Assembly: GCA_019244185.1 (NCBI GenBank)
Contig: JAFATB010000022.1
Location: 32,001 to 96,000, forward strand
Direction: 5' to 3'
DNA length: 64,000 nucleotides
Origin: Acidobacteriota bacterium
GTDB taxonomy: Bacteria; Acidobacteriota; Thermoanaerobaculia; Gp7-AA8
The translations under genes and the position numbers were made by a program. This document shows, one piece after another, positions 3,799 through 42,452 of this stretch. The notes under the pieces were generated by a model. It searched no databases. It saw only the letters and a list, made by a program, of their open reading frames with translations, and had not been told where the DNA came from. Positions within the stretch are counted from its first letter, which is position 1; every line of letters begins with the position of its first letter.

Positions 3799-3801
3799 TC
3801 T

Positions 3802-10941: not shown

Positions 10942-17058
<6,117 letters not shown>

Positions 17059-17196
17059 GGAATCCACCCCATCCTGAATTTGGTGTCGCGGAGCGCAGGA
17101 GCGTCCCGCGGGCAATGACTATTCGGTGAGACCGTTGATGCGGCGACTTTAACACGCGTCGCGGCGGCGGCACACGTGAATTCGGTGTGCAGACGC

Positions 17197-20940: not shown

Positions 20941-21070
20941 GAATCGTGTTCTAAACGTTGGCCGGGAAGAAAGCAATCGGAATCCTCTGACGCGGACGCA
21001 TCATTGCCGCAGTTCCTAATTTACATATTGCCATAACTACTTACTCGCTGCTATCCTGCCGCTCATCCCG

Positions 21071-22807: not shown

Positions 22808-23257
22808 ATGAACCTGGCTCTGGCATTCAAGCTCGCGTTCGGACTGTCGGTCATTGGCTGGATCGCGCTCTTCCTGCGGCCGCGCAGCCGGATGGTGAAC
22901 TACGTGTTCTCCGGGATGATGCTGCCCGTGGCGTTCGCGGTGCTGTACACGTTCCTCTGTATTTATTACTGGCACAGCGCGAGCGGCTCGTTCCTGGAGC
23001 GCTTCGGCAGTCTCGACGGCACCCTGCGCATGTTCAATCAGTCCAAGGGGCTGCTGTTCGCGGGGTACGTGCACTACCTCGCGTTCGATCTCTTCATCGG
23101 CTCGTGGATCGCGCGGCGAGCCACGGCAGACAAGATGTCGTACGCGGTTCTCTTCCCATGTCTCTTCCTGACGCTGGTGTTCGGTCCGGCGGGGCTGCTG
23201 CTCTATCGCGTGATCGTGCGTGCGCGCGGCGGCCCGATGCTGGACGACCTCTTCTGA
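22808..23257 (+). CDS. ABA4-like (DUF4281) membrane protein
   Basis: Canonical GYVHYLAFDLFIGSWI and PCLFLTLVFGPAGLLLY motifs. Confidence 0.85.
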   Translation: MNLALAFKLAFGLSVIGWIALFLRPRSRMVNYVFSGMMLPVAFAVLYTFLCIYYWHSASGSFLERFGSLDGTLRMFNQSKGLLFAGYVHYLAFDLFIGSWIARRATADKMSYAVLFPCLFLTLVFGPAGLLLYRVIVRARGGPMLDDLF

Positions 23258-23292
23258 CCGCCGCGCCAACGCAACTTCCTGGAGATCTCCTC

Positions 23293-24675
23293 ATGTCGGT
23301 GTCCGAACGGTTCGATGTGATTGTGGTCGGCGCGCGTTGCGCCGGCTCGCCGCTGGCGACGTTCCTCCAGCGCGCGGGATTGTCGGTCTGCGTCGTCGAC
23401 CAGGCCGAGTTTCCGAGCGACACGCTCTCGACGCACATGTTTCAGCTGAGCGGGATCGAGATCCTGCAGAAGCTCGGCGCGCTCGACGGCATCCTCGCCG
23501 AAGGCGCGCCGCCGATCACGGACTGCTACATGAAGTTCGAGGATGTCGACCTCTCCGGACCGCCGCGCCTGCGGCCGCACGATCCGAAAGTGCCGATGCT
23601 CTGCGTGCGCCGCATTGCGCTCGACGTGCACCTCGTCGCCGCGGCGCGCGCCGCGGGCGTGGAGATGCGCCTCCATCGACGTGTCGTCGGTCTCATTGAA
23701 GACGACGGCCGCGTCGTCGGCGTGCGCACGGTCGATCGCGAAGGCAAAGTCGCGACGCTGCGCGCGGACCTCGTCGTCGGCGCCGACGGACGTCTGTCGA
23801 CGATCGCGCGGCTCACCGGCGCGCGCCGCTATCACGTCACGACCAGCGAGCGGATGAGCAGCTGGGCGTATTACCGCGGCGTGCCGAAGCAGCCGGTGGC
23901 GAAGGTCTACTACCACCGCAAGGGCGACGACTTCGTGGTCGCGGCGCCGGCGGACAACGGCCATTTCGTGGCCATCGTCTGCCCGTCGCTCGACGAGCGC
24001 GAGGCGTACCGCGTCGACGGCGAGGGCGCGTACTGGCGGACCATCGAAGGTTGCGCGCCGGTCGCGGAGCTCGTGCGCGGCGCCGAGCGCGTGACGAAGT
24101 TCCGCGGCCTCACGCGCTTCGAGGGCTTCTTCCGCGAAGCGACCGGGCGGGGCTGGGTGCTCGCCGGCGACGCGGGACACTTCAAGGATCCGACGCCGGG
24201 GCAGGGCATCTCCGATGCGCTGCGCCAGGTCGAGAAGCTGTCCGAGGCGATCGTGCGCGGCTTCTCGCGTCCCGACCGTCGCGACGAAGAGCTGCGCCGC
24301 TGGTGGCGCTGGCGCGACGCCGACGCGATGCAGCACTACTGGTTCGCGGCCGACATCGGCAAGCGCGGCCCGATCTCGCCCGTGCTGCTGGAGATCCTCC
24401 GCGGCGTCGCCGCGAACGAAGAGCTGCGTCAGGACTTCCTCGACATCTTCCTCCACCGCGCGTATCCGCGAGAGGTCTTCGGCTTCGGCGCGCTCGCCAT
24501 GGCCACCGCGCGCATGCTGGCCGATCCGCACAAGCGCCGCGGCGCCCTCGGCGAGGCGGCCAAGCTCGTGGCCGAGGAGCTCGGGCGGCGCAAGCAGGCC
24601 CTGCGTCCGCGGCTCACCGAGAAGGCCATCGTCGACGAGATGCAGTTCGATCAGCAGACCACCAGCGCGGCGTGA
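23293..24675 (+). CDS. NAD(P)/FAD-dependent oxidoreductase (geranylgeranyl reductase/FixC-like fold)
   Basis: GGAG SD; DVIVVGARCAG, VVGADG and LAGDAGHFKDPTPGQGISDA FAD fingerprints. Confidence 0.85.
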   Translation: MSVSERFDVIVVGARCAGSPLATFLQRAGLSVCVVDQAEFPSDTLSTHMFQLSGIEILQKLGALDGILAEGAPPITDCYMKFEDVDLSGPPRLRPHDPKVPMLCVRRIALDVHLVAAARAAGVEMRLHRRVVGLIEDDGRVVGVRTVDREGKVATLRADLVVGADGRLSTIARLTGARRYHVTTSERMSSWAYYRGVPKQPVAKVYYHRKGDDFVVAAPADNGHFVAIVCPSLDEREAYRVDGEGAYWRTIEGCAPVAELVRGAERVTKFRGLTRFEGFFREATGRGWVLAGDAGHFKDPTPGQGISDALRQVEKLSEAIVRGFSRPDRRDEELRRWWRWRDADAMQHYWFAADIGKRGPISPVLLEILRGVAANEELRQDFLDIFLHRAYPREVFGFGALAMATARMLADPHKRRGALGEAAKLVAEELGRRKQALRPRLTEKAIVDEMQFDQQTTSAA

Positions 24676-24735: not shown

Positions 24736-26793
24736 TCAGTTGCGCCGGTCGTTCACGTAGCGGTCGCGGTCGTTCATCCGATAGTAGAAGCGGCGCATGA
24801 GGACCGCGCCGATGGCCAGCACCACCAGTTGGAACAGGCCGTTGCCGAGGACGGAGAAAAAGTCCTGCAAGAACGTGCGCGGCGAGTCGCCGAAGCCGCC
24901 GTAGTACGACATGAACTGCGCGACCACCATGACCAGCGCAGCGGTCGTGGCGATGGTGACGGCGCTGGCGACCCACTGGATGATCAGCTTCGCCGTCTCC
25001 GCGGCCTTGCTGACCAGCGGCACGATGTTGATCGAGCTGAGCGACTCGACGGTCTTCTGCACGCGGTAGAGAAGCTTGACGCCGGAGTCGAAGCCCTGCT
25101 CGAGGCGTGTGAAGATGCGCGGGCTGCAGAACTGGCGCAGGCGTTTGTGCAGCCGCCGCTTCGCGCGCCGCCCCGCGCCGCGCTCGTAGTAGCGGAACTC
25201 CTTGTAGGGATTTTGGTCGTGGTCGAGGCGCGCGGCGATCGTGTCGGCGAGCATCGACGCGCGGATCATGCGCAACGTGTTGAGGCGCATCGGAATCTGG
25301 AACTCGCGCGTGAGGCGCATGAAGCCGAGCCACAGCCGCGACGACACGCGCTCGTACCACGCCGAGTTCTTGCTCTTGATCGCGTAGAGATCGTTCCAGA
25401 ACATCTGCTCGAGCCGCGCGCCGAATTCGTCCTTGTCGATCGGCGGCAGCGGCTCGATGATCGCCATGGCCGCCTGCACCATCCCGCCGATGTCGTTCAC
25501 GCTCTGCGCGTCGAACCACGCCCGCCACGAGTTGAGCTCGCGCCGGTTGAACGAGCCGCACGAGCCGAAGTCGATCAGCACGATGCGGTTCCCCGGCTGC
25601 ACGAGGATGTTCGCCGGATGCAGGTCGGCGTGGAAAAAGATGTTCTCGAAGTTGTTGTAGCGCGAGATCAGCTGCACCCGCCGCGCGAGCAGCACCGGAT
25701 CGAGGCGCATCTGATGGAGGCGTTCCTGCGCGGCGAGGTCCTTCGTCTCGAGCGCGGTGATGATCTCGTTCATCCAGACGCCGCAGACGAACTCCGAGAC
25801 CAGCACCTCGTGGTTCGATTCGTCGGGGAAGATCTTCGGCGCGGTGACGAAGTGGAACTGCCGCTCCTTGCGCATGCGCCGGCGGTAGAGCTCCGAGAAG
25901 CGCGCCTCGCGCACGAAGTCGAGCTCCTCGAAGAGCATCGTGCTCAGCTCGTGGAGGAAGTTCTTCGTGAAGCCGGGGCGGAAGAGGAACACCTCCGCGA
26001 CGGCGAGCAGCCAGCCGAAGGCGCGCATGTCGGCGGCGAGGATGTTGCCGATGTTGGGACGCCGCACCTTCACCGCGACTTCCTCGCCGGTGTGCAGCAC
26101 CGCGTGGTAGACGCAGGCCACCGACGCGGAGCCGATCGGCGCGCGGTCGAACTGCCGGAAGAGCTCCGCGATCGGCTTGCCGGTCGTGCGCTCGATCGTC
26201 GCCACGGCGCTCTCGAACGGCATCGGCGGCACTTTGTCGAGCATGCTCTCGAGCTCGCGCGTGTAGGCGTAGGGGAAGAGGTCGAGCCGCATCGAGAGCT
26301 GCTGGCCGACCTTGATGAACGTGGTCCCGAGCGACTCGAACGTCTCGCGCAGCCGGCGCGCGCGCTGATGCTGGCTGTCGCGGCCGCGCAGGCGGTCGCT
26401 GACGATGCCGAGGCCGAACTGCATTGCGCCGCGTAGCCAGACCAGGAGGCGCAGCGTCGTCTGCAGCAAGCCCGCGTTGAACTGTTCCTCGCGGCGCACC
26501 GGCGGCAGCGCGGATTGCCGTCCGGTCTGGACGCCCAGTCCGGGCGGGCGTCGGAACTCGTGCTCGAAGATCGGCGAGCGTTCCACCGGCGTCTCGAGCA
26601 GCTCCCGGAACGCGAGCCAATCCTCGGTGGCCTCGGCCGCCGCGCGGCGCACTTTGCGCTGGCGGCGCGGCTCGTTGTTCGACGGCACGGCCGTGGGCGC
26701 GGTCAGCGCCGCCAGCACCAGCTCGGTCCGTTCGCCGGCGGAGGGTGATTCGGAGATGGGGAGGGACACGCCGAGATATTTTGCCCGATACAT
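24736..26793 (-). CDS. AarF/ABC1/UbiB family atypical kinase with C-terminal TM helices (start uncertain)
   Basis: FIKVGQQLS (KxGQ), IGSASVACVY, VAVKV, EELDF, FFHADLHPANI, IDFG. Confidence 0.88.
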   Translation of the reverse strand: MYRAKYLGVSLPISESPSAGERTELVLAALTAPTAVPSNNEPRRQRKVRRAAAEATEDWLAFRELLETPVERSPIFEHEFRRPPGLGVQTGRQSALPPVRREEQFNAGLLQTTLRLLVWLRGAMQFGLGIVSDRLRGRDSQHQRARRLRETFESLGTTFIKVGQQLSMRLDLFPYAYTRELESMLDKVPPMPFESAVATIERTTGKPIAELFRQFDRAPIGSASVACVYHAVLHTGEEVAVKVRRPNIGNILAADMRAFGWLLAVAEVFLFRPGFTKNFLHELSTMLFEELDFVREARFSELYRRRMRKERQFHFVTAPKIFPDESNHEVLVSEFVCGVWMNEIITALETKDLAAQERLHQMRLDPVLLARRVQLISRYNNFENIFFHADLHPANILVQPGNRIVLIDFGSCGSFNRRELNSWRAWFDAQSVNDIGGMVQAAMAIIEPLPPIDKDEFGARLEQMFWNDLYAIKSKNSAWYERVSSRLWLGFMRLTREFQIPMRLNTLRMIRASMLADTIAARLDHDQNPYKEFRYYERGAGRRAKRRLHKRLRQFCSPRIFTRLEQGFDSGVKLLYRVQKTVESLSSINIVPLVSKAAETAKLIIQWVASAVTIATTAALVMVVAQFMSYYGGFGDSPRTFLQDFFSVLGNGLFQLVVLAIGAVLMRRFYYRMNDRDRYVNDRRN

Positions 26794-27801: not shown

Positions 27802-27912
27802 CGGTAGCCGGACGGACCGGCCACGGTCCGACCTCGGTGGTGGTTGGTGGTGGCGGACTCCGTGGGTTGCAGGCCCCACGGATCCGCCACCCCATTTTCA
27901 GAAAGTCAACTT

Positions 27913-28461
27913 ATGGACCGAATCAGCAAAGCCGTCTATCGACTCTGGGGCTCCCTCGGCACGAACGACAAGTTGCACGACACGCCGCGCTTCGCCGACG
28001 AGCTCTCCGCTCAATGCAGCACCGGCAAGCTCGCGCTGCGCGACGAGCGCGTCAGCAAGTGGTCGTACGGCGAGCAGCTCGAACACCTCTACCGCAGCAG
28101 TCACTACGTCCTCGACCGGCTCGAGGAAGCGATGAGCGGCGCGAACGCGGACGAGCGCCGCGGCGTGTGGGGCCACGGCCTCATGACCGCCGGCTTCATC
28201 CCGCGCGGCTTCTTTCCGACCATCCCGCCGCTCGAGCCGGAAGGCGGCACGATCGATCAGATCGGACCGCTGCGCGAGTCTCTGAAGAAGCGGCTCGCCG
28301 AAGTCGACCTCGATCTGCGCCGCATCAAGGCCAGTCCCGGCCGCAGCCTCCATCCCCGGATGAAGTGGCTCACCTCGAGCGAATGGTTCTTCTTCGCCGA
28401 CGTCCACCACCGCCATCACCTCTCCATCATGCGCGACATCGCGCGCACCGCCCGCCGCTAG
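27913..28461 (+). CDS. DinB/YfiT family putative metalloenzyme
   Basis: KWSYGEQLEHL, HPRMKWLT and HHRHH match the DinB His-triad pattern. Confidence 0.75.
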   Translation: MDRISKAVYRLWGSLGTNDKLHDTPRFADELSAQCSTGKLALRDERVSKWSYGEQLEHLYRSSHYVLDRLEEAMSGANADERRGVWGHGLMTAGFIPRGFFPTIPPLEPEGGTIDQIGPLRESLKKRLAEVDLDLRRIKASPGRSLHPRMKWLTSSEWFFFADVHHRHHLSIMRDIARTARR

Positions 28462-28471
28462 AGCGACTCCC

Positions 28472-29113
28472 ATGATCCGAAAACTCCTCACCGCGCTCCT
28501 CGCGTCGTGCGCCATCTACGGATTGCCGGCGCTCGCTCATCCGGACATCTTCCGCACGCCGCAGTTCTGGATCCTGATCGCGTTCGCCGTCGGGATCTCC
28601 GCGTTCCAGCCGGCGTACAAGCCGGTCGACGCGTCGGCGCCGAAACACGACCGCGGCACCGCGGCGCAGATCGTCTGGTCGGTGTATCTCACGCAGCTCA
28701 TCGGGATCCTCGAGGCCGTGTTCGTGCGCTATCCCGACAGCTTCCGCTGGGACGCGGTGACGACGGCCGCGCTCGTCCTCATGGCCGCCGGACTGGCGCT
28801 GCGCGTCTGGGCCGTGCTCACGCTCGGCCGCTTCTTCACCTGGTTCATCACGGTGTACGAGGATCACCAGGTGATCCGCACCGGACCGTTCCGCTTCATC
28901 CGCCATCCGTCGTACGGCGGCGCGCTGCTGCTGTTCGTCGGCACGCTGCTCTTCATCCACGCGTGGGTCGGCGCCGCGCTGTCGCTCGCCTTTCAGCTCT
29001 TCGCATACGTCCGCCGCATCCGCTACGAAGAAGCGATGATGATCGAGCGCCTGGGCAAGCCTTACGTCGTGTACACGCGCGAAGTGCGCGCGCTCGTGCC
29101 GCTGCTCTGGTGA
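28472..29113 (+). CDS. isoprenylcysteine carboxyl methyltransferase (ICMT/PEMT) family membrane methyltransferase
   Basis: TLGRFFT...DHQVIRTGPFRFIRHPSYGG...RIRYEEAMM...Y..Y. Confidence 0.88.
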   Translation: MIRKLLTALLASCAIYGLPALAHPDIFRTPQFWILIAFAVGISAFQPAYKPVDASAPKHDRGTAAQIVWSVYLTQLIGILEAVFVRYPDSFRWDAVTTAALVLMAAGLALRVWAVLTLGRFFTWFITVYEDHQVIRTGPFRFIRHPSYGGALLLFVGTLLFIHAWVGAALSLAFQLFAYVRRIRYEEAMMIERLGKPYVVYTREVRALVPLLW

Positions 29114-31098
29114 CGCGGCCGGAGCTCCGCTTCGAGCTCGTCGTCGATTTCGTTCAGGAACTCGATGAGCTTCGCGGCGAAGAGCTCCGGCCGTTCCTCG
29201 TGTGACGAGACGCTCGCGAACGGAATGATCTCGAGCCGCCGCGCGCCCGGAATCGTGTCGAGCAACTTCCTGCCGTACGACGGCGAGTAGTACGCGTTGT
29301 CGGCGCCCCAGACGATCAGCGTCGGCACGTCGAGCTGCGCGAGCGACTGATTGAGCATCGCGACGTCGTTGTCTCGTAGCGTACGAAAGAAGCGCGTGAG
29401 GTGCCGGCGTCGCGCGGGCGTGCCGGCCACGGTGTCGCGATAGCGGCGGATGCGCTCCGGCGTGAGCAGCGAGCGGTCGTGCACGAGTCTTCCGAAGCCG
29501 AACGACGAGCGCGCGACGAGCGGCACGCGCATCAGCGATGCGAGCAGTGCCGCGCCGCCGGGGATGCGCATCAGTGACGCGAGGCGCGCCGCGTGCGGCG
29601 GCGGCCACGGGCCCTGCGCGTCGGAGTCGGAGAGCGTGAGGCTGCGCACGCAATGCGGCCAGCGCACGGCGAAGAACTCCGCGACGACGCAGCCGCTGTC
29701 GTTGCCCACGATGTGCGCGGACGCGATGCCGAGCGCGGATAACAGCCCGCGCACGCGCGCGGCCTGGGCCGACAGCGTGTAATCGGCGGATGGCGGAGCG
29801 TCGGTGTCGCTGATGCCGAGGGTCTCGATGATGAGAGCGCGGCGTTTCGTGGCCACCACGCGCTCGACGACGGCGTCCCACGCGTGCGCGCCTGCGAAGC
29901 CGTGCAGAAACACGACCGGCGTGCCGCTGCCGATGTCTCGGTACGCGACGTTGACGTCGCCGACCTGATGGAAGCGCTTCTCGGTGAACGCCGGATCGTC
30001 GCGCGTGACGGAGACCGCGTGGATCGCGGCGCGTTCGGAGCGCGGCTGTAACTCGTCGTCGATTGCGATGCTCGGCGCGACGCTGCGCGCATCGGCCGCG
30101 CGCACCGCGGTCTCGAGCCATTGCGCGGGATCGGGACGCGTGAGCGCGAACGGCGCGAGCGCGAGATCGGCGCGATAGGTGTCGAACACCGGCCCCTGAT
30201 GCAACAGTTCGAGACTGCGCGCGGGCAGCATCCACGCGGCGATGCGCGGCAGCAGCAGCGCGCCGCGTTTGCGTCCGCGGCCGCGCGCGGCGATCGCCGC
30301 CGCTTCCTTCACCGGCAGCGACGCGTGCCAGCCGCAGGCGAGATGAAATGTCCCGTCCGCGCCGGCGCAGGCGAGAGAGGCGATCGCGGCGCCCACGTAG
30401 TCGGCGGGAACGAAGTCGATGCGCGCGCGGCCGTCGCCGGGAAGCGCCTTCGACGACGCGAGCGCCGCGAGCAGCGGATACGCGCCGCCGAGGTGGAACG
30501 CGGCGCCGTTCTTCGCGCGGCCGAGCGTATGGCTCGGGCGGTAGATGGTCACGCGATCGCTGACGCGCGACTCGCGCAGCCGCACTTCCGCCTCGAACTT
30601 GCTGCGCTCGTACGCGTTGTGGAAGCGCTGGCCGCAGTCGAGATCGAACTCCGTCAGGAGTCCGCGCCGCGCGCCGCCGACGAAGCCGGTCGACAGATGA
30701 TGCAGGCGCAGCACGGGATTCCGTTCGAGGAGACGGATCCAGTTTTCGACCGGCAGCACGTTCGCCTGGCGCGCGAGCTCGAGGTTCTGATCGGTCGTCT
30801 CGCGTTGCGCGCAATGGATGCCGACGTCGAACGACGCCGCGAGCTCGTCCCACGCGCCGATCGAGAGGCCGAAGCGCGGCAGGCGCAGATCGCCCATGAC
30901 GATCGTGACGCGGCGCGCGAGCGGTCCGACGTACGCTTCGAGATGGCTGATGAGGCGCGTGCGCGCGGCTTCGTCGAACGGCAGCAGCAGGCGCAGCGAA
31001 TCCACGTCGGGATGCGACAGCAGCTCGCGCAGCACCTCCGCGCCGGCGAGCGTCGCCGCGCCGGTGAGCAGGATCCGCGACTTCGGGGTCGGTCTCAC
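29062..31098 (-). CDS. thioester-reductase-like SDR fused to alpha/beta hydrolase
   Basis: GTG at 31098 with AAGGAG SD. ILLTGAATLAG, GDLRLPRFGL, YERSK, IYRPS, DFVPADY; then VFLHGF, HIVGNDSG, IVWGADN, HEERP. Confidence 0.8.
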   Translation of the reverse strand: MRPTPKSRILLTGAATLAGAEVLRELLSHPDVDSLRLLLPFDEAARTRLISHLEAYVGPLARRVTIVMGDLRLPRFGLSIGAWDELAASFDVGIHCAQRETTDQNLELARQANVLPVENWIRLLERNPVLRLHHLSTGFVGGARRGLLTEFDLDCGQRFHNAYERSKFEAEVRLRESRVSDRVTIYRPSHTLGRAKNGAAFHLGGAYPLLAALASSKALPGDGRARIDFVPADYVGAAIASLACAGADGTFHLACGWHASLPVKEAAAIAARGRGRKRGALLLPRIAAWMLPARSLELLHQGPVFDTYRADLALAPFALTRPDPAQWLETAVRAADARSVAPSIAIDDELQPRSERAAIHAVSVTRDDPAFTEKRFHQVGDVNVAYRDIGSGTPVVFLHGFAGAHAWDAVVERVVATKRRALIIETLGISDTDAPPSADYTLSAQAARVRGLLSALGIASAHIVGNDSGCVVAEFFAVRWPHCVRSLTLSDSDAQGPWPPPHAARLASLMRIPGGAALLASLMRVPLVARSSFGFGRLVHDRSLLTPERIRRYRDTVAGTPARRRHLTRFFRTLRDNDVAMLNQSLAQLDVPTLIVWGADNAYYSPSYGRKLLDTIPGARRLEIIPFASVSSHEERPELFAAKLIEFLNEIDDELEAELRPRHQSSGTSARTSRVYTT

Positions 31099-32234
31099 AG
31101 GGACACTCCTTGTTCGACGCCGGCGAGCACGTGCGCGGCGGAGTAGCGCGACATCCACCAGCGCTGCAGCGGCAGCGTCGGCTTGAGCAGCGGGTCGTAC
31201 GCCTTGATGTAGAGGTACTGGTCTTCGAGCGTGCCGCCGAGGCGTGTCTTCGGCACGTACGAGCTCTGGCCGAGCCACAGCGTCTGGATGCCGCGCTCGA
31301 TCGCGCGCTGGATGCCGGTGTAGTTGAGCAGGTTGTAAATGAGGCCGCTGTCCGGCAGGTCGTAGTCGATGCCGATGCGTTTGTTCTGCTGCTCGCGCTC
31401 GTCGTAGAAGATCATCAGCGAGCCGGCGATGTGGCCGTCGTTGCGCTCGCAGACGACGAGCTCCGTGCGCGGGCTCCTCGTGCGCGCGCATTCGACGAAG
31501 AAGCGCGGGCCGAGCTCCTCGAACTGGTACTTCGCCTTGAGGAACACCGCGCGATGCAGCGGAAAGACGCGCGGGATCATCGACTCGAAGTCCTCGATCG
31601 CGCGCAGCGTGTACGTTCCCTCGGCCTTGTGGAACTGCTTGCGCGCGTGCTTGCGGCCGTTCTTCGAGAGCTGCTTGGTGAGGTAGTCCTCGAACGACGC
31701 GTACGCGGTGTTGATGCGGATCGTCGGCAGCGAGAAGCCTTCCGTGTAGCCGGCGCGGCGGAACACCGCGCGGTCTTCGGCGGGGAAGTCGCGGTGGATG
31801 TCCTTCAGCATCGCCAGCTGCGCGTGATGCTGTTTGGCCACGCCGTCGAGCGCGCGCAGCAGCAGCTGCAGCGCGGTGGCGTGGTCGGTGAGCTCGGGAT
31901 GCATCGGAATCCAGCCGCGGTCGGAGATGAGGCAGCCGGTGACGGCGACGCGCGTCGCGATCGCAGAGCCGACGCCGCTCACGAGCGCGTCGTAGCCGGT
32001 CTGGATCGCCTTCGGCAGCAGCGCGTTGAAATTCAGATTGCTGCCGACGTAGACCGGCGTGAACGCGACGACGGTGCCGTCGTCTTCGACGGTCAGATAA
32101 CGGACGTGCAGCTCGCCCCACAGCGAGCGTTCCATCGCCCGCAGCAGGCCGAACGAGAAATCGAGTCCGGTCGGCAGCGGCGCGAGCTGCGCGGCCCCGA
32201 TCTCGTCGATCGACTCATAGACGTGCGCGCGCAT
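31095..32234 (-). CDS. FemAB-like/BioF2-like tandem GNAT transferase
   Basis: SFEDYL..LSKNGRK, GIDY, IQRAIERG...LGQSSYVPKTRLG motifs. Confidence 0.8.
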   Translation of the reverse strand: MRAHVYESIDEIGAAQLAPLPTGLDFSFGLLRAMERSLWGELHVRYLTVEDDGTVVAFTPVYVGSNLNFNALLPKAIQTGYDALVSGVGSAIATRVAVTGCLISDRGWIPMHPELTDHATALQLLLRALDGVAKQHHAQLAMLKDIHRDFPAEDRAVFRRAGYTEGFSLPTIRINTAYASFEDYLTKQLSKNGRKHARKQFHKAEGTYTLRAIEDFESMIPRVFPLHRAVFLKAKYQFEELGPRFFVECARTRSPRTELVVCERNDGHIAGSLMIFYDEREQQNKRIGIDYDLPDSGLIYNLLNYTGIQRAIERGIQTLWLGQSSYVPKTRLGGTLEDQYLYIKAYDPLLKPTLPLQRWWMSRYSAAHVLAGVEQGVSL

Positions 32235-33225
32235 GGCTCACGACCTTTCGCTGAAAGGCATCGAACGTGTCGCGGGTGTCGGAGGCGAGATCGCCGGCGA
32301 GCGCGCGCACGCGTTGCCGCGCGTCGTCGCTCATGTCGTACGCAAACGGACCGAAGCCGCGCGCGGCCAGGAACGTCGCCGTCGCGCGGAACGTGCGCGG
32401 CAGCACCGCATCGACCCACGCCGCGTCGGACACGGCGATGGTCCACGTGTTGACCAATTGCTCGATGAACGATAGCGCGGCGTCGACGAGCGCGGGATTC
32501 TGCAGCGCGGGGAGCAGCGCGACGGCGATGAGCGTGCCGAGGTCGAAGGCGGGATCGCCGCAGCAAACGCCTTCGAAGTCGACCAGCGCGACCGGCGCGC
32601 CGCGGCGCACGAGGAGGTTCTTGCTCCAGAGGTCCGCGTGGATGAGGCACTCGCGATGCGCTTCCATCTCCGCGCGGATGCCGTCCCATTGCTCGGCGAA
32701 CACCTGCCGCGCGCCGGGCGCGAGCAGTCCGTCGAACACGATCCTGCGCACGATCGCTTCCTCCTGCGCGGGACGCGGCGACGCCTTGCCGCGCGTGCAC
32801 GCGTGCACCGCGCCGAGGCCGCGGCCGAGCGGTTGCGCGGCCTCGAGGAGCAAATCGAAGTCGTCGCGAATGACGTTGAAGAGCACCGCGCGTCCTTCGC
32901 CGACGTCCGTCATCGCCAGCGCGAACTCGTCGCGGTCGACGAACAGCACTTCCGGGATCAGCACCTCGCCTCCCGCGAACGCGCGGAACTGCCACAGTCC
33001 CGCGGCCTCGGAGAACACGCGCTCGCGCGGCAGCTTCACCGGCAGACGCTTCGGCTGCTCCGGAATGACTTTGAGGTACAGGCTGCGCCCGTAGACTTCG
33101 ACGCGATAGACGTAGTTGATGTTCGACAGCGCGCCGTCCTCGGTCACGGAGACCGGCGCGTCGTCGCGCAGCTTCAGACCACGGCGGACGATCGATGCGA
33201 CGTCGGCGACGACGGCGGTGGTCAT
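32215..33225 (-). CDS. APH/methylthioribose-kinase-like phosphotransferase
   Basis: ATG at 33225 overlaps the upstream TGA; NINYVYRV, LYLK, LIHADLWSKN, VDFE...GDPAFDLG. Confidence 0.85.
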   Translation of the reverse strand: MTTAVVADVASIVRRGLKLRDDAPVSVTEDGALSNINYVYRVEVYGRSLYLKVIPEQPKRLPVKLPRERVFSEAAGLWQFRAFAGGEVLIPEVLFVDRDEFALAMTDVGEGRAVLFNVIRDDFDLLLEAAQPLGRGLGAVHACTRGKASPRPAQEEAIVRRIVFDGLLAPGARQVFAEQWDGIRAEMEAHRECLIHADLWSKNLLVRRGAPVALVDFEGVCCGDPAFDLGTLIAVALLPALQNPALVDAALSFIEQLVNTWTIAVSDAAWVDAVLPRTFRATATFLAARGFGPFAYDMSDDARQRVRALAGDLASDTRDTFDAFQRKVVSHARARL

Positions 33226-34184
33226 GGGATGGCCTCCGGCAACCCCATGTACGTGAGGCGGCTGTTCTGCATCTCCGTCGACCACGTATGCGCGGCGATG
33301 AGGCGCTCTTCGGGCGTCGTGTCGATGAGCCGCTTGCCCGGCCAGATCTCGTAGTCGCCGACGACGTCCGCGTGCTGCTCGAGCCCCGCCTGGAAGAAGA
33401 GCTCGCGCTTGATGATCACGTCTTGCGTCGGCAGTGTCGCCCACAGCTGGCGCCCGCGCGTGATGATGTCGAGGACGTGCGGCTTCGCCTCGGGATGCTC
33501 GCGAAGATAGTCGCGCACCGTCGAGCTCCCGACCGTGAGGTGGCGGATCTCGTCGATGTTCGCGCCGCGCTCGATCTGCGCCGCGGGTGGATCGAGCAGC
33601 CGCCACTTGCGCTCCGACAATTCCGCCGCCGGCGCGAGCACGCCTTCGACGAGGATCGTGAGGATCACCACGCCGGCGATGAAGTCACGCTGATCGCGGA
33701 TCAGCGGCAGCGCGAAGGCTTCGAGCGGATGCAGGATCGCGCGCGCGTCGTCGCCGCTGATGCGCCAGATCGTGTCGAACAGCTCCTGCTCCGGCACGCC
33801 GAGCTCGAGGAGATGTCCGCGGAAGACGCGCGAATGCCGCGCCTCGTCGATGAGCTGCGTGCCGAAGAACTCCATCGTGTAGACGTCCGGCGCCGCGGCG
33901 ATGATGTACGTGATCGAGCGCGTCGCGATTTCCTCGGCGATGGACCGGAACGCGAACTCGTTCATGATCGCCTCGCGCAGCGGCCCGGCCTCGAGCATGT
34001 ACGCCGGCACGCGCGCGTTCGGCGCGTGGCCGTGCACCATGCCCGCGAGCGTGCCCTGCGGCACGGCCGTGAACCAGTAGTCGAGATCGCAGTCGCGCGG
34101 CGTGAGCTCGAGGCGGCTCGCGCCTTCGATGAGCGTCGGCGCCTCCGTCCAATCCGCCTCGCGCGGAATCGTGGTGGTCGTCAT
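33222..34184 (-). CDS. vlmB: VlmB-like non-heme diiron enzyme (putative azoxy synthase)
   Basis: Diiron ligands AEE...DEARH...VEG...DEIRH. LELTPRDCDLDYWFTAVPQGTL and EFAFRSIAEE match VlmB-like proteins as recalled; context supports. Confidence 0.8.
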   Translation of the reverse strand: MTTTTIPREADWTEAPTLIEGASRLELTPRDCDLDYWFTAVPQGTLAGMVHGHAPNARVPAYMLEAGPLREAIMNEFAFRSIAEEIATRSITYIIAAAPDVYTMEFFGTQLIDEARHSRVFRGHLLELGVPEQELFDTIWRISGDDARAILHPLEAFALPLIRDQRDFIAGVVILTILVEGVLAPAAELSERKWRLLDPPAAQIERGANIDEIRHLTVGSSTVRDYLREHPEAKPHVLDIITRGRQLWATLPTQDVIIKRELFFQAGLEQHADVVGDYEIWPGKRLIDTTPEERLIAAHTWSTEMQNSRLTYMGLPEAIP

Positions 34185-34197: not shown

Positions 34198-34662
34198 TTA
34201 CCAAGTGCCGGCGGCCTGGTAGTCGCGCTCGAAGCGGCGATAAGCCTCGTGCTTCACCGGCTCGAAGGCGGTGCCGAACGGCTTGTAGATGTTCCCGAAG
34301 ACGGAGCGGTCGCCGCAGAGATGGATCGGGAACGCGAGCATCGCCCACTCCAGCCGGCCGCCGATCGCGTACCAGATCGCGCAGAACAGCACCGTCGTGG
34401 CGAAGCTGTGGCCGAAGTTGTAGAGCTGGTGGATCACGGTCGGGATCGAGCGGTGCTCGCCCGAGCAGCGGAAGTAGTAGCAGTACAGACCGGGGAACGT
34501 GCCGAGGACGTCGGGCAGCGCGAACGCCCACGCGAAGTGCCACCAGTTCACCTCGCGCACGTGCAGCAGCAGCACGCCGAAGGCGGTGAACATGAGCACG
34601 GCCCAGTCGATGCGCTCGAGCGTGTAGATCGTCGGCGTGTGAAAGAGATTGTGTTTGTCCAT
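34198..34662 (-). CDS. vlmO: VlmO-like small integral membrane protein (putative hydrazine synthase)
   Basis: 154 aa with 4 hydrophobic segments; PD..G, LYNFGHS and PIHLCGDRSVFGNIYKPFGTAFEP; lies between vlmH-like and vlmB-like genes. Confidence 0.75.
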   Translation of the reverse strand: MDKHNLFHTPTIYTLERIDWAVLMFTAFGVLLLHVREVNWWHFAWAFALPDVLGTFPGLYCYYFRCSGEHRSIPTVIHQLYNFGHSFATTVLFCAIWYAIGGRLEWAMLAFPIHLCGDRSVFGNIYKPFGTAFEPVKHEAYRRFERDYQAAGTW

Positions 34663-34680: not shown

Positions 34681-35808
34681 TTACGCGACTTGCATCGGCT
34701 TGCCCATGAGGTAGCCGTCGATGGCGGAGGCGACGGAGAGGCGCGACGGCGGATGGAACGCGAGCGCGCGCGCGGCGGCGTAGAGATACGAGACGTCGGG
34801 TGTCTTGATGAAGGCCATGCCGCCGAGGAGCTCGGTGGCGCGGACGGTGACCCGCTCGATGGCCTGCTGCACGGCGAAGCGCACCAGCAGCGACTGCACG
34901 AGGATGCCCTCGCCGCGCTCGCCGGTCTGCATCGCGCGCGCGACGCCTTCGAGCGATGTCATCGCGCCTTCGAGATCGATGGCGAGCTGCATCCGCTCGG
35001 CGATGTCGCCGCGTCCGTGCGTGAAGACTTTTTCCGCGAGCGCGGACGCGACGCCGAGGTACGAGGCGGAGACGAGCAGCTCGAACCAGAGGAAGCCGCC
35101 CGCTTCGACCGCGTCGAGACTCTCCTCGACCTCGGGGAAGAAGAGCTGTTCGTCGGCGATCTGCACGTCGGTGAGGCAGAGCTCCTCGCTCTCCGCGCCG
35201 CGAAGCACGGTGCTGCTCCAGAACGGCTTGCGGGTGATGCCTTCCGCGTCCGCGGGCACGACCGCCACCGCGCGGCGGCTGCCGTTGCCGTTGTTGCTCG
35301 GCACCGAGACGCTCGCGGTGAGGATGTGCATCGAGTTCGACAGGCTGCACGGCTTCTTGCTGCCGTTGATGCGATAGCCGCCGCCGTCCTGCGGCGTGGC
35401 CTTCATCAGCGGATCGAGGATGCTCGTGCCGGTGCGGCCTTCCGCGAACCCCGAGGCGACCAGGAGCTGCCCGCCCGCGATCTGCTGGAGCAGCTCCACC
35501 GTGTAGTCGCCGTAGAAGAGGTACTCGACCAGCGTCGCCACCGAGAAGTTGTGCATCGTCATCGCGATGGCGAGCGACGGCGAGCGCGTGGCCACGGCGC
35601 GGTGGATCTGGATGGCCTCCGCGGGCGTGGCGCCTTTGCCTCCGTGCTCGGCCGGCACGAGCAGCCCCGCGCCCTCGAGCTCGCGGAGGATGGTGAGGCC
35701 GGGATTGCCCGGCTTCTCGATCTCCATGAGCGGGATTTCCTGCAGTTTCGCGTCGAGTGTGGGGAGGAACTTTTCGAGCGTCTCCCGATCCCTTTTCAGG
35801 AAGTTCAT
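34681..35808 (-). CDS. vlmH: VlmH-like flavin-dependent alkylamine N-hydroxylase (acyl-CoA dehydrogenase fold)
   Basis: GLLVPAEHGGKGA...RSPSLAIAMTMHNFS, ASGFAEG, GSKKPCSLS, LLGGMAF, LAFHPPSR resemble isobutylamine N-hydroxylase as recalled. Start at 35808 follows GAGGGG. Confidence 0.82.
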   Translation of the reverse strand: MNFLKRDRETLEKFLPTLDAKLQEIPLMEIEKPGNPGLTILRELEGAGLLVPAEHGGKGATPAEAIQIHRAVATRSPSLAIAMTMHNFSVATLVEYLFYGDYTVELLQQIAGGQLLVASGFAEGRTGTSILDPLMKATPQDGGGYRINGSKKPCSLSNSMHILTASVSVPSNNGNGSRRAVAVVPADAEGITRKPFWSSTVLRGAESEELCLTDVQIADEQLFFPEVEESLDAVEAGGFLWFELLVSASYLGVASALAEKVFTHGRGDIAERMQLAIDLEGAMTSLEGVARAMQTGERGEGILVQSLLVRFAVQQAIERVTVRATELLGGMAFIKTPDVSYLYAAARALAFHPPSRLSVASAIDGYLMGKPMQVA

Positions 35809-35893
35809 GACGTACCCCTCGCTGAATTGTTTTTTGCGCGACCGGTTCATTTATAGAGCTGATCCATAAAAAAGTAAAGATCGAAAAATAGCA

Positions 35894-35976: not shown

Positions 35977-38900
35977 ATGGCGACGCCTTCGCTGGTTCAT
36001 CTGCTTCAGGAGCGCGCGGACGAGCTTCCCGGCCACCGCTCGTACACCTTTCTCGCCGGCGGTGAAGAATCGGAGAGCCTGACGTTCGCGCGGCTGAACC
36101 GGCGCGCGCGCGCCATCGCCGCGCGGCTGCAGCGCCTCGGCGCGAAAGGGGAGCGCGCGCTGCTGCTCTATCCGGCCGGCACCGAATACATCGCCGCGTT
36201 TTACGGCTGCCTGGCCGCGGGAACCGTCGCGGTGCCCGGCTATCCGCCGCGCATGAACCGCAACCTCAACCGCCTCGAGTCCATCATCAAGGATGCGGAG
36301 GCGCGCTTCGCGCTGACTACCGACGCCGTCTACCGCCAGCTCAGCGAGCGCTTCGACGAGTCACCGAGCCTCAAACGCCTGCAGTGGGTCGTCACCGATC
36401 CGATCGCGGAAGATGAGGCGGACGGCTGGACCGATCCGAACGCGACGCGCGAGACGCTCGCGTTTCTCCAGTACACGTCCGCATCGACCTCCGCGCCGAA
36501 GGGCGTCATGGTCACGCACGGCAACATCCTCCACAACCAGGTCCTGATGAAGGAGGCGGTGCAGCACGACCGCAACACGATCGCCGTCTCCTGGCTGCCG
36601 CTGTTCCACGACATGGGACTGATCAGCATCGTCCTCTCGTCGCTGTACAACGGCATCCCGTGCTATCTCGTCGCGCCGGTCGATTTCCTGAAGAAACCGC
36701 GGCTGTGGCTCGAGGCGATCAGCAAGTACGGCGCGACGTTCAGCGGTGCGCCCGACTTCGGCTACCAGCTCTGCGTCGAGCGCATCAGCGCCGAGGAGCG
36801 CGCGAAGCTCGACCTGTCGAAGTGGCGGGTCGCGTTCAACGGCTCGGAGCCGATCCGCTCGGACACGCTGCGCCTCTTCACCGAGACGTTCGCCGAATGC
36901 GGCTTTCGTCCGACCTCGATGTTCCCGTGCTACGGCCTCGCGGAGAACACGCTCTTCGCGAGCGGCCGCTTTCACGACGGTCCGACGTCGTTCTCGCGCG
37001 CGAGTCTCGAGCGTCATCGTCCCGCGCCGGCGACGGAAGGTCATTTGGCGCAGCTCGTCAGTTGCGGCAAGGCGCTGCTCGACTCCCGCATCGTCATCGC
37101 CGATCCGAAGACGCGCCGACGCTGCGGCGAAGGTGAAGTCGGCGAGATCTGGCTGGCCAGTCCGAGCGTCGCGCAGGGCTACTGGAATCAGCCGCGGCTG
37201 AGCGAGGAAACGTTCCGCGCGCAGACGCTCGACGGCGACGGTCCGTTCCTCCGCACCGCGGACCTCGGCTTCTTCCACGCCGGTGAGCTCTTCATCACCG
37301 GCCGCATCAAGGACCTCATCATCATCCGCGGACGCAACCTCTGCCCGCAGGACATCGAACAGACGGTCGAAGCGTGCGACGCGGCGATCCAGCCGACGTT
37401 CGTGGCCGCGGTCGCGGTCGACGCGGGCACCAGCGAGCGGCTGGTCATCGTCGCGGAAATCCGGCGCGAGGCGCGACGCGAGCTCGATACCGAGGAGATC
37501 GTGCGGAAGATCCGGAACGCGGTAGCGGCGGAGTTCGCGGTGGAAGTGTCCGCGGTCGTGCTGCTGCGTCCGGGACAACTGCCGAAAACGTCGAGCGGCA
37601 AGACGCAGCGCGCGCACGTGAAGCAGCAGTTCCTCGACGGCCAGCTGAAGACGGCCATGATCGCGGAGTGGCGTGACGAGAACGCGTTCCGCGCGAACGA
37701 TCCCGAGCCGCCGCGCGCGCCGAAACACGCGCCGACGCAGGAGCGCATCGAGAGCTGGCTCGTGCAGCGCATCGCCGCGCAGACGAAGATCCCCGCGACG
37801 CGCATCGACCGCACCGCCTCGCTCCTCGTCTACGGACTCGACTCGGTCGTGCTCGTGGCGATCTTCGGCGAGCTCGAAGACGCGTTCCGCGTCACGCTCG
37901 ATCTCGACCGCATCTTCCACGGCGAGCCGTCGCTGCGCGAAGTCGCGCAACGCGTGCACGCCGCGACGCGCGCGACGGCGGCGACGGCAGATGTTCCCGC
38001 GCCTGCGCCTGTTGCCGCGCCCGCGCGTCCGCAGCCGGTGCCCACCGAAGCGCCGCCCGCGCAACCGGCATCCGTGCTGCCGATCGCGAAGCCGAAGAAG
38101 CTCACGCTCGGCAACACCGACGCGACGGCCGCGTCTCCGACGCCGAAGCCGGTGCTCGCCGCGGTGCCCGACACCAGACACGAAGAACGCGCGCCGAAGC
38201 CGAAGCATCCCTTCCGCACGCACGTCAATCCCGAGCTCGGGCGCGTGCTCGAGCAGATGGCCATGGACAAGTCGTTCGTGCGCGGCGAGGGGAGCTGGCT
38301 TTGGGATGAAGCGGGGCGCCGCTACCTCGATTTCCTCGCGCAGTACGGCGCGCTACCGTTCGGCTTCAATCCGCCGCGTATCTGGTCGGCGCTGAACGCC
38401 GTGCGCGCGACCGCGGAGCCGAGCTTCGTGCAGCCGTCGTATCTCAACGCCGCGGGCGAGCTCGCGAAACGACTGCTCGCCGTCGCGCCTCCGGGCATGG
38501 CGTACGTGACGTACGCGAACAGCGGCGCGGAAGCGATCGAGGCGGCGATCAAGCTCTGTCGCTCGACGACGAAGCGCCACGACATCCTCGCCGCGGGCAA
38601 CGGCTTCCACGGCAAGACGCTCGGCGCGCTCTCCGCGACGGACAAGGAGAAATACCAGAAAGGCTTCGGCGCGCCGGTACCCGGCTTCCACTACGTCCCG
38701 TACGGCGACGCGGACGCGCTGCGGCGCGCGCTCGCCGGCGGCCGCTACGCCGCGTTCCTCGTCGAGCCGATCCAGGGCGAGGGCGGCATCGTTGAGCCGC
38801 CGGCGGGTTACCTCCGGCTCGCGCGCAAGCTGTGCCGCGAGGCGGGCACGCTCTTCGTCGCCGACGAGATCCAGACGGGACTCGGCCGCACTGGCGCGAT

Positions 38901-40839: not shown

Positions 40840-42452
40840 GCGCGCTCGGCGAGCTCGCCGCATGGGCGCACGGGCTGCGTCTCGACGACGTGCCGCCGTT
40901 CGTGCGCGCGCGTGCCGTCGACCAACTGCTCTCGACGCTCGGCGCGATGTACGCCGGCGCCGCGAGCGAGCTCGGTCCGAAGCTCGACCTCTTGTTCGCG
41001 GACGTTGCGCCGGAGACGACGCGCGAGGCCATGCGCATGGCCTCGTGGTCGATGGTGCTCGACTACGACGACGTCATGCTCGGCGGTCACACGAGCCATT
41101 CAGCGGTCGTCGTGCCGCTCGCGTTCGCGGACGGGCATTCCGGCGCGGAGCTGCTGCTCGCGCAGATCGTTGCGAACGAGATCGCCGCGCGCGTGAACAT
41201 GGTCTGCGCCGTCGGCTCGACGCGCGGGCAGATGGCGACGCACCTTCATCTCCTCGCCGCCGCCGCCGCGCGTGCGAAGCTCGAAGGTCTCGATGCCGCG
41301 ACGTTCGCGGATGCGCTGTCGTTCGCGCTCGCGTATCCCGCGCAGGCGCTCTATCCCGCGTTTCTCGGCAGCGACGCGAAGGCGCTCTGCGCCGCGCTGC
41401 CAGTCCGCGCCGGCATCGAAGCGGTCGACGCGGTGCGCGCGGGACTGCGCGCGCCGGGTGAGGTACTCGACGGCCCGCGCGGCTTCTTCGCGACGCATGC
41501 GCGCGTGCCGGTGCGCGATTTTCTCGGCGGACTCGGCACGCGCTGGCACACCGCGACGAACAGCTTCAAGATCTACCCCGTCTGCGGCTATCTCTGCTCC
41601 GCGGTCGACGCGACGCTCGACCTCGTGCGCACGTATGACGTCGACGCGGACGACGTCGCGTCCGTCGACGTGCACGCGTCGCTCTTCACGGTCGGCATGG
41701 ACGCGCATTCCGTTCCCTACATTGACGGCCCGCGCTCACCGATCGCGGCGCTCACGTTCTCGACGCCGTTCGTGATCGCGTCTGCGATCCGCGCGCGTGC
41801 ATTCACGCCGGCGCAGCTCGAACGCGCGTGGATCGAAGACGAGCGCGTGTGGCAGCTCGCCGCGCGCGTACAAACGCGCCACGATCCGCGCCTCACGCGC
41901 GACGCGCTCACCGCGGACATCCCGATCGGCGCCGCGCTACGCCGCGTGAAGAAGTGGCAGGCCGGGGGATTCGCGTGGAGCATTGCCGCGACGGCATTCG
42001 GCCGCGCGGGGCGTCTGCGCCGTCCGGTCGAAACGCTGCGTCTCATCGCGGGACTCACCGCTGCGGCAGGCGATCGCGCGCCGATGGAGTTCGAGCGCGC
42101 GACGAAGCCGATGGGCGCGCGCGTCGCGATGCGTCTGCGCGACGGCCGCACGCTCGAACGCGAGGTGTCGATCCCGCGCGGCTTCGCGGGCGGCATTGAT
42201 GACATCCGCACGCTGATGATTCACAAGTTCCTCGCCGCCGCCGCGCCGGAGCTCGGCAGCGCGCGGGCCGCCACCGCCGCCGTCGCGCTCGAACACTACG
42301 AGTCGCTCTCGCCCGACGGCGTCGCGCGCCTCGTCGACGTGCTCGCGCGCGAGACGCCGCCGTTCACCCGCGCATCAGCCGCGGCGGCAGCATCCACTCC
42401 AGCGATGCGTGGCGGCCGCTCCAGCGAAGGCCGTAGCAGCCGCCTTTCTTGA
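40836..42452 (+). CDS. MmgE/PrpD family protein (putative VlmK-like lyase)
   Basis: GTGA overlap; LDYDD...GHTS, FKIYPVCGYLCSAVDA, FSTPFVIA, REVSIPRG...KF. Confidence 0.85.
   Translation: MSALGELAAWAHGLRLDDVPPFVRARAVDQLLSTLGAMYAGAASELGPKLDLLFADVAPETTREAMRMASWSMVLDYDDVMLGGHTSHSAVVVPLAFADGHSGAELLLAQIVANEIAARVNMVCAVGSTRGQMATHLHLLAAAAARAKLEGLDAATFADALSFALAYPAQALYPAFLGSDAKALCAALPVRAGIEAVDAVRAGLRAPGEVLDGPRGFFATHARVPVRDFLGGLGTRWHTATNSFKIYPVCGYLCSAVDATLDLVRTYDVDADDVASVDVHASLFTVGMDAHSVPYIDGPRSPIAALTFSTPFVIASAIRARAFTPAQLERAWIEDERVWQLAARVQTRHDPRLTRDALTADIPIGAALRRVKKWQAGGFAWSIAATAFGRAGRLRRPVETLRLIAGLTAAAGDRAPMEFERATKPMGARVAMRLRDGRTLEREVSIPRGFAGGIDDIRTLMIHKFLAAAAPELGSARAATAAVALEHYESLSPDGVARLVDVLARETPPFTRASAAAAASTPAMRGGRSSEGRSSRLS

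Follow-up and report, generated by a model that had tools for sequence, protein, structure and literature searches.

The aliphatic azoxy pathways named in the papers cited here belong to Streptomyces or Kitasatospora hosts. In the valanimycin (vlm) system of Streptomyces viridifaciens and Kitasatospora setae, the pathway leads from a hydroxylamine via an aminoacyl ester and a hydrazine to the azoxy compound, followed by phosphorylation and elimination (PMC11705231, PMC13755311, bioRxiv 10.1101/2023.10.13.562208). Here, we analyze a vlm-like gene cluster of an Acidobacteriota bacterium (GTDB lineage Bacteria; Acidobacteriota; Thermoanaerobaculia; Gp7-AA8), in which a FemAB-like tandem GNAT stands where the aminoacyl transferase VlmA would be expected. 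The cluster lies on contig JAFATB010000022.1 of assembly GCA_019244185.1, whose forward-strand positions 32,001 to 96,000 constitute the stretch of 64,000 nucleotides studied, in the following called the window; all coordinates are positions in it.

The window cluster and the valanimycin-type clusters have homologues of VlmH, VlmO, VlmB, and VlmK in common (37–53% identity), and the implied chemistry follows the same logic. In contrast to valanimycin, it has a FemAB_like GNAT for the DUF2156-type VlmA and an APH-family kinase for the DAGK-type VlmJ, and it is devoid of a flavin reductase, a seryl-tRNA synthetase, a permease, and a valine decarboxylase. Its amine would be supplied by a FAAL-carrier-aminotransferase protein and a reductase, so that the alkyl part should be long-chain, and its host belongs to the Acidobacteriota, not to Streptomyces. 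The azodyrecin (ady/azd), KA57-A, and elaiomycin-type clusters likewise obtain a fatty amine from a class-III aminotransferase and employ N-hydroxylation and a VlmO/VlmB pair. Azodyrecin carries a carboxyl methyl ester, as proposed below for the product of the window cluster, and its cluster, like the window, gives no clue in the form of a linked tRNA or synthetase gene. Azodyrecin-type clusters encode a DUF2156 transferase (Ady7/AzdA) and an LCM-family methyltransferase (PF04072), whereas the window encodes the GNAT and an ICMT-type enzyme.

The FemAB-Like Gene and Its vlm-Type Neighbors

The GNAT gene (31095–32234, minus strand) encodes 379 aa from an ATG start. Genes were called by codon-position GC content in a window of about 68% GC, and the values of this open reading frame (ORF), 0.65/0.42/0.93, are those of genuine genes of the window. 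Two Pfam families are matched above their gathering cut-offs, FemAB_like (PF04339; 39.6 bits versus 27) and Acetyltransf_6 (PF13480; 31.0 bits versus 22). At E ≤ 10 Pfam returns these two alone and lists neither PF09924 nor the Pfam FemAB family PF02388. The same two families and nothing else were obtained from the ESM Atlas, no NCBIfam model matched, and a PDB sequence search with either the protein or its 33-sequence family profile gave no relatives, FemX and FemA included. The subfamily is compact: among 1.84 billion representatives at 50% identity, three full-length proteins show 45–81% identity, followed by members of the broad family at 30% or less, and 958 proteins in total reach E ≤ 1e-3. 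Fused forms were not seen among proteins of 663–2000 aa, which by the search tool's own account is weak evidence.

In order of transcription, the minus-strand operon comprises genes for an acyl-CoA dehydrogenase (ACAD)-fold protein, a membrane protein of 154 aa, a ferritin-like protein, the APH kinase, the GNAT, and a reductase-hydrolase. The last four genes, from the ferritin-like protein to the reductase, are translationally coupled. An ATGA overlap joins the stop of the VlmB-like gene to the kinase start, the kinase stop and the GNAT start overlap by 20 nt, and a GTGA overlap joins the TGA stop of the GNAT gene to the GTG start of the reductase gene at 31098, which is preceded by AAGGAG.

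A tblastn search of plasmids with the 320-aa ferritin-like protein returned 13 Streptomyces records with 49–53% identity, all 13 annotated as "VlmB-like protein". Among these, plasmid NZ_CP108116 of Streptomyces sp. NBC_00212 (locus L014) shows the full valanimycin layout in the order DAGK, PrpD, serS, DUF2156, ACAD, small hypothetical protein, flavin reductase, PGAP-annotated VlmB-like protein, permease, and decarboxylase. For Streptomyces BHT-5-2, hit H24 stems from a record without annotation. In BLASTP comparisons with the proteins at the corresponding positions of L014, the window homologue of VlmB (non-haem di-iron oxidase, 320 aa; 33222–34184, minus strand) is 53% identical (E 4e-118), that of VlmH (ACAD-fold flavin N-hydroxylase, 389 aa; 34681–35850, minus strand; Pfam Acyl-CoA_dh_M/N) 43.6% (E 9e-101), that of VlmK (MmgE/PrpD protein; 40836–42452, plus strand) 39.6% (E 2e-73), and that of VlmO, a homologue of the N-N bond-forming hydrazine synthase (integral membrane protein, 154 aa; 34198–34662, minus strand), 36.6% (E 3e-29). 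The VlmH-like gene may in fact begin only at the ATG at 35808; the top NCBIfam match of its product is DszC. The best Pfam match of the VlmO-like protein, DUF4260 (E 0.11), remains far below the cut-off. Its residues D51, H85, H114, and D118 are invariant in 10/10 aligned sequences from both phyla, and this D/H/H-x3-D set agrees with the essential residues D51, H82, H110, and D114 published for VlmO (PMC11705231). The di-iron motifs DEARH and IDEIRH of the VlmB-like protein are invariant as well. Judged by sequence, the neighbors of the GNAT are thus true homologues of VlmH, VlmO, VlmB, and VlmK.

Absence of a VlmA-Type Gene

VlmA has been equated with PF09924 (DUF2156 / LPG_synthase_C) (PMC9379638). 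An earlier note on this DNA, drawn up from the letters alone, had placed VlmA in a DUF2156-like family, in agreement with that paper and with how vlm-like loci of Streptomyces are annotated, and had seen no such gene here; it had also given the coordinates and the tandem-GNAT nature of the ORF at 31095–32234 correctly, as the Pfam scores and the two GNAT halves of the structural model described below confirm. The window indeed contains neither a VlmA-type DUF2156 gene nor a DAGK-type VlmJ nor a flavin reductase VlmR. Distant copies are present elsewhere in the genome, which is 98.9% complete: DUF2156 on contigs C2 and C5, DAGK on C4, and flavin reductase on C14, the window itself being part of C7. 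The PF09924 match on C2 sits in an MprF-like frame of 876 aa. The C5 gene is a free-standing DUF2156 among AraC, DUF4386, and GGDEF genes; its product is 22–27% identical to VlmA-like proteins, and orthologues (40–43% identity) occur in two relatives, in one of which (G015) no VlmB was found.

Moving to the related loci, the DUF2156 hidden Markov model (HMM) gave no match in any of the ten genome loci, nor in any GNAT locus. Of the ten genomes concerned, only one has a PF09924 match anywhere, and it is one of the nine that carry VlmB. Among the eight VlmB-bearing genomes without a match, a completeness figure is available for one (G434; 99%, with contamination of 2%). The cluster thus has no general need of a VlmA-type enzyme, which speaks against the possibility, raised in the earlier note, that a true vlmA is encoded elsewhere and needed.

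Likewise, the GNAT is not a plain VlmA orthologue, another possibility raised in that note. BLASTP against VlmA-position DUF2156 proteins gave E ≥ 1, and hhalign of the GNAT family against 11 VlmA-like DUF2156 proteins gave a probability of 0.3% (E 0.24), at low alignment diversity on both sides (Neff 1.9). At most, GNAT and VlmA are related by a shared ancient fold. The proposed replacement of VlmA by the GNAT would be a non-orthologous displacement, with only the tandem-GNAT fold in common.

Predicted Structure of the GNAT

An AlphaFold2 model built from the 33-sequence alignment (predicted local distance difference test, pLDDT, 87.1; predicted template modeling score, pTM, 0.87) consists of two GNAT halves. 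In a structural search of 48161 chains, the eight best matches of this model are all aminoacyl-tRNA-dependent enzymes. Sbb17 (Z 22.5), S. aureus FemX (6snr; 22.1), FemA (1lrz; 21.7), and Weissella FemX_Wv (4ii9; 21.7) are followed by four MprF/aaPGS (L-PGS) chains with Z 19.4–18.5 and root-mean-square deviations of 3.6–4.0 over 260–279 residues. Below these come a protein of unknown function (Z 17.0) and then coenzyme A (CoA)-dependent tandem GNATs at 16.9 or less. Foldseek agrees with the ranking of aminoacyl-tRNA transferases (E 1e-12). The comparison with FemX and MprF that the earlier note had called for thus places the nearest folds of the predicted structure among the aminoacyl-tRNA-dependent transferases.

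The best matches of the model, FemX/FemA and the streptothricin-pathway proteins Sbb17/Sba18 (Orf11 type), extend over 270–305 residues at Z 21.7–22.5, and they share with the modeled GNAT a double GNAT fold and a substrate site between the halves. In contrast, sequence identity is a mere 10–16%, the PF02388 match is missing at E ≤ 10, and the acceptor of the GNAT would be the O or N of a lipid-like hydroxylamine, while FemX-type acceptors are peptide or sugar amines. A basic helix, SKNGRKHARKQF, is conserved in the family, in keeping with an aminoacyl-tRNA-dependent enzyme. Near the C-terminus, K328 within GQSSYxPKxRxGG is invariant (33/33 sequences). Catalytic Lys residues have been described as Lys305 in FemX_Wv and Lys329 in DhpH-C (PMC12945691); K328 may lie near the FemX Lys305 position, by a rough linear estimate and not by residue-level alignment.

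CoA-using GNATs carry a Q/R-x-x-G-x-G/A pyrophosphate-binding motif in the beta4-alpha3 loop. The corresponding loop of the GNAT (289–296) reads DYDxxDSG in the printed alignment rows, i.e., the CoA motif is absent and the loop is acidic. A regular-expression search for the motif hit scattered, non-homologous positions in 9/33 sequences, the protein of the window not among them.

Distribution of GNAT and DUF2156 Genes among VlmB Loci

Ten related genome loci were found, all in Acidobacteriota (Thermoanaerobaculia, Pyrinomonadaceae, Bryobacterales, Holophagales, and Ca. Angelobacter). The order ACAD, membrane protein, di-iron protein, APH kinase, GNAT, reductase is complete in eight of them; one is cut by a contig end, and one (L011) consists of GNAT and reductase alone. 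The GNAT is present and followed by the reductase in 10/10 loci, while the hydrolase half of the reductase is absent or separate in 4/10.

To extend this set, metagenome contigs were scanned with a two-phylum VlmB alignment, the best 80 of 188 confirmed relatives were kept, and the loci were scored with two HMMs, one of the GNAT family and one of VlmA-like DUF2156 proteins (clean alignment); an additional tblastn of these loci employed an imprecisely cut C5 DUF2156 query. Locus L056 was left out due to an apparently mis-joined contig end. Among the best 80 loci, 19 contain the GNAT, 10 contain DUF2156, none contains both, and 51, mostly short contigs, contain neither. The mutually exclusive occurrence with vlmA that the earlier note had proposed as a check is what these counts reveal. 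Some metagenome loci duplicate genome loci (e.g., L067 and L013), which renders the counts partly non-independent. All five Streptomyces plasmid VlmB loci that were opened, out of 13, encode DUF2156 and no GNAT, the DUF2156 gene adjoining the ACAD, the VlmO-position gene, the flavin reductase, and VlmB. Altogether, the GNAT lies beside VlmB in 28 loci, nine from genomes and 19 from metagenomes.

The kinase type follows the same division, and the metagenomic loci with GNAT have the APH kinase. In 20 of the 21 metagenomic loci with sequence beyond the APH kinase, the GNAT comes next (L071 is the exception), and DAGK matches are confined to metagenomic loci without GNAT. Between the APH kinase of the window and the DAGK of L014, BLASTP detected zero similarity. 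A second displacement in the cluster, of the DAGK/YegS-type VlmJ of Streptomyces by the APH kinase, is thus apparent. Another layout, type C (e.g., L083), comprises a flavin reductase, a hydrolase, VlmB, MMPL, DAGK, LCM, and PrpD; these loci stop short of the transferase gene and were scored as "neither".

A quick maximum likelihood tree of VlmB (IQ-TREE, 90 rows, midpoint root, matches below 296 residues dropped) collects the GNAT loci in two groups of 41 and 7 rows, with support values in the approximate likelihood ratio test (SH-aLRT) of 94 and 96, respectively, and no DUF2156 locus falls inside either. The GNAT label needs two changes on this tree, only one of which is forced by the starred branches; therefore, neither a single origin nor a direction of replacement is shown. 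At the level of the phylum, VlmB was present in one of 401 sampled genomes, the one studied here, such that co-occurrence is uninformative at that level. Within the genus, GNAT matches at E ≤ 1e-10 occur in six of 35 genomes, G000 included: three close ones (77, 74, and 51% identity) have VlmB 0.7–1 kb away, and two weak ones (33 and 26%) are located in genomes without VlmB.

A variant architecture is found in the same genus. In locus L105 (G415:C92:62000-81000), a 50%-identical GNAT accompanies the ACAD-membrane-diiron core in the order AsnB-like (asparagine-synthase-like) protein, 432-aa protein without Pfam match, reductase, stand-alone aminotransferase, SRPBCC, ACAD, membrane protein, di-iron protein, short NAD_binding_4-like ORF, GNAT, and DUF5996. 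Kinase, PrpD, and ICMT genes are missing from this locus, and the full reductase is far upstream of the GNAT, which is adjoined by a fragment-like NAD_binding_4 ORF of 236 aa (E 2e-4). Thus, the GNAT follows the H-O-B core and not the tailoring genes. The layout resembles the ACAD-aminotransferase-SRPBCC-O-R-B arrangement of the Streptomyces plasmid loci L015 and L018. As a side observation, the only PF09924 match of this genome (G415:C66:19287-20102, E 1.6e-19) is inside an open frame of 4316 aa, possibly as the DUF2156 part of a giant fusion protein.

Proposed Pathway

Mapping the cluster onto vlm by enzyme class leaves one vlm transferase function and one unexplained protein of transferase fold, and likewise a kinase function and a kinase. 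In the conserved gene set, the GNAT is the sole candidate for an acyl or aminoacyl transferase, and the sole adenylation domain is of fatty-acid type (FAAL); therefore, no aminoacyl thioester would be made locally. Of the conceivable donors, aminoacyl-tRNA agrees with the fold as well as with the chemistry. On these grounds we favor, as the probable role of the GNAT, the VlmA step of an Acidobacteriota azoxy pathway, i.e., the aminoacylation of a long-chain alkylhydroxylamine from aminoacyl-tRNA, probably seryl-tRNA, which feeds VlmO and VlmB.

The pathway would start from a protein of 1620 aa (35977–40839, plus strand) composed of a FAAL, a carrier domain, a class-III aminotransferase, and a C-terminal NAD(P)-binding-like domain (Pfam; NCBIfam FAAL/PigE), encoded together with the VlmK-like gene divergently from the minus-strand operon. 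Acting with a thioester reductase in trans, it may convert a fatty acid into a long-chain amine. This reductase (NAD_binding_4; 29062–31098, minus strand; Pfam, NCBIfam) is fused to an alpha/beta-hydrolase and is proposed to release a fatty aldehyde from the carrier domain. By homology, the VlmH-like protein would N-hydroxylate the amine, whereupon the GNAT may transfer an amino acid, most likely serine, from aminoacyl-tRNA to the alkylhydroxylamine. Rearrangement of the ester by the VlmO homologue is expected to give a hydrazine, which the VlmB homologue would oxidize to the azoxy group. The APH-family kinase (PF01636, E 1e-14; 336 aa; 32215–33225, minus strand), our proposed VlmJ analogue, and the PrpD-type enzyme, a presumed phosphate-eliminating dehydratase, could then remove water from the serine part, giving a vinyl azoxy acid whose carboxylate may be methylated by an ICMT/PEMT-family membrane methyltransferase (28472–29113, plus strand; ICMT E 2.7e-19).

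Serine is the likely amino acid because the VlmK homologue and the kinase are kept; a long alkyl chain is expected because the FAAL-carrier-aminotransferase protein and the reductase are present, and a methyl ester is suggested by the presence of the ICMT-type enzyme. There are no tRNA genes in the window, and tblastn found a single seryl-tRNA synthetase match in the genome, on contig C13, with no second copy; hence, a cluster-linked tRNA or synthetase clue is not available.

Alternative Explanations

Several points weigh against the GNAT as an aminoacyl-tRNA-dependent enzyme of the VlmA step. Donor, acceptor, and amino acid are all inferred, similarity of fold alone is no proof of function, and our literature search found no PF04339 member with demonstrated activity. 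To these are added the low diversity of the hhalign alignments and the single completeness figure mentioned above. The free-standing DUF2156 on C5 could act in trans. In L071, whose contig is cut upstream, VlmB and the kinase are followed by ICMT and flavin reductase instead of a GNAT. Genome G008 harbors, on a chromosome of 5.19 Mb, an intact GNAT (70% identity) and a thioester reductase (L011, 10001–12245), while no VlmB or VlmH orthologue was found anywhere in this genome and the flanks of the pair are unrelated to the cluster. On one side there are genes of TPR, sigma-factor, and TonB type; the opposite flank has DUF5122/FG-GAP and ATP-grasp genes. The pair can thus persist or function without the azoxy core and is either a remnant or a unit with an independent function. 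Finally, a Rhizobium relative of the GNAT belongs to a lipid-type cluster with no link to tRNA. This relative is a PF04339 protein with 25% identity on plasmid pRL23b4 of Rhizobium leguminosarum (L102, 1862–9857), where the operon also encodes a HAD phosphatase, a class-III aminotransferase, an arginase-family protein, a fatty acid desaturase, an alpha/beta-hydrolase, EamA transporters, and a cyclopropane-fatty-acyl-phospholipid synthase; it may represent an uncharacterized aminolipid pathway.

Such a cluster would suit a GNAT that acylates the hydroxylamine or amine from a thioester, with CoA, the carrier domain of the 1620-aa protein, or a separate carrier protein loaded with an acyl or aminoacyl group as the donor; an acyl-ACP/CoA N-acyltransferase had been the alternative of the earlier note. 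CoA thioesters are the donors of most GNATs, and CoA-dependent tandem GNATs still match the model at Z 13–17, with a tandem GNAT of the clavulanate pathway in the Foldseek top ten. In addition, a thioester reductase always adjoins the GNAT and the cluster includes a carrier domain. We nevertheless hold a thioester donor to be unlikely: all eight top structural matches use aminoacyl-tRNA, the loop that should bind the CoA pyrophosphate is acidic and lacks the motif, a lone FAAL provides no local aminoacyl thioester, and VlmO/VlmB chemistry needs the amine nitrogen of an amino acid (PMC11705231).

If the GNAT were a tailoring or unrelated enzyme, the VlmA step would fall to the fused alpha/beta-hydrolase, to a DUF2156 or MprF protein of the host in trans, or directly to an aminoacyl-tRNA synthetase. 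The C5 and C2 genes of the genome itself and the kinase of L071 without an adjacent GNAT are in line with this, but eight of the nine other cluster genomes are free of PF09924, the hydrolase half is missing or separate in four of ten loci that all have the GNAT, none of the VlmB loci scored combines GNAT with DUF2156, and the GNAT of L105 stays with the H-O-B core where kinase, PrpD, and ICMT are absent. An assignment of the step to another protein therefore appears very unlikely to us. The invariant order of GNAT and reductase in the ten genome loci, along with the isolated pair in G008, could also mean that the two genes form an independent unit that travels with azoxy genes and, for instance, (amino)acylates a reduced lipid (fatty alcohol or aldehyde). 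Against 28 loci with the GNAT beside VlmB, however, G008 is a single case that may be left from cluster loss. In L105 the full reductase is separated from the GNAT by the core, with only the fragment-like ORF adjoining, and the subfamily is compact, identity dropping to 30% or less beyond three full-length representatives. This is the explanation to which we give the least credence, and a transferase of the VlmA step remains our preferred assignment for the GNAT.

Further Genes of the Window

The C-terminal 460 aa of the 1620-aa protein (39457–40836, plus strand) match Rossmann-type profiles weakly only (Shikimate_DH, E 4e-4; THF_DHG_CYH_C, E 1e-3); this NAD(P)-like domain coexists with the separate reductase acting in trans. 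The APH kinase has weak NCBIfam matches to LxmK, MTR kinase, and homoserine kinase. The ICMT gene is kept in 7/10 genome loci and 11/19 metagenomic GNAT loci, and its conserved neighbor, a gene for a DinB_2 family protein (27844–28461, plus strand; Pfam), in 6/10 genome loci. Farther out, genes for an ABC1/UbiB-type kinase (24736–26793) and an FAD monooxygenase (23104–24675) are also syntenic.

Outside the conserved region, very large DUF11-repeat surface-type proteins of 2058 and 717 aa are encoded at 10942–17118 and 18847–21000 (both minus strand), the longer one also with Calx-beta and endonuclease/exonuclease/phosphatase domains; plus-strand ORFs over these two genes are probably antisense artefacts. 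The segment 42837–50111 (minus strand) encodes a patatin-domain protein of 1271 aa, a nonribosomal peptide synthetase-like adenylation-carrier-thioesterase protein of 1152 aa, whose N-terminal 320 aa have no assigned domain, and an ABC ATPase. None of these turned up in the related genome loci, the search there being aimed at the patatin gene alone. At 3793–7114 (plus strand), genes for a BlaI-type repressor, a BlaR1 M56 sensor, and a 730-aa protein with a beta-lactamase-family domain form a row.

Implications

A report of a VlmA-free GNAT variant of the known azoxy pathway did not appear in the literature searched: neither a VlmA-free nor a non-actinobacterial vlmHOB cluster was found, figures S7 and S8 in the supplement of PMC9379638 (neighborhoods of VlmA groups) lying outside this search. 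Azoxy mining in that paper used PF09924 as its search handle in actinobacteria and therefore could not find the GNAT variant. The handle thus misses part of the azoxy diversity, and the predicted azoxy chemistry reaches the Acidobacteriota, here known almost only from metagenome-assembled genomes. The two apparent, paired replacements, DUF2156 by GNAT and DAGK by APH kinase, constitute a natural experiment on the substrate requirements of VlmO and VlmB. In biocatalysis, the formation of N-N bonds would profit from a soluble FemX-like enzyme able to aminoacylate hydroxylamines.

For the family PF04339/COG3146, our analysis proposes a concrete testable activity. Among its members, AlpO of the argolaphos cluster and Arabidopsis At2g23390 have the family in common with the GNAT, whose identity to the general family does not exceed 30%. 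AlpO was suggested by its authors to be an aminoacyl-tRNA peptide ligase, a prediction only (PMC8976061), and a pterin-related prediction for COG3146 has been invalidated (PMC3223725). Going beyond the single locus, and with slightly more doubt than conviction, we put forward that the subfamily may form a new class of aminoacyl-tRNA-dependent transferases of an origin separate from VlmA, which would O-aminoacylate lipid hydroxylamines and give the Acidobacteriota a hitherto unseen route to N-N bonded (vinyl-azoxy) lipids that does without VlmA. If true, this would be the first functional foothold for PF04339/COG3146, a family that reaches into plants.

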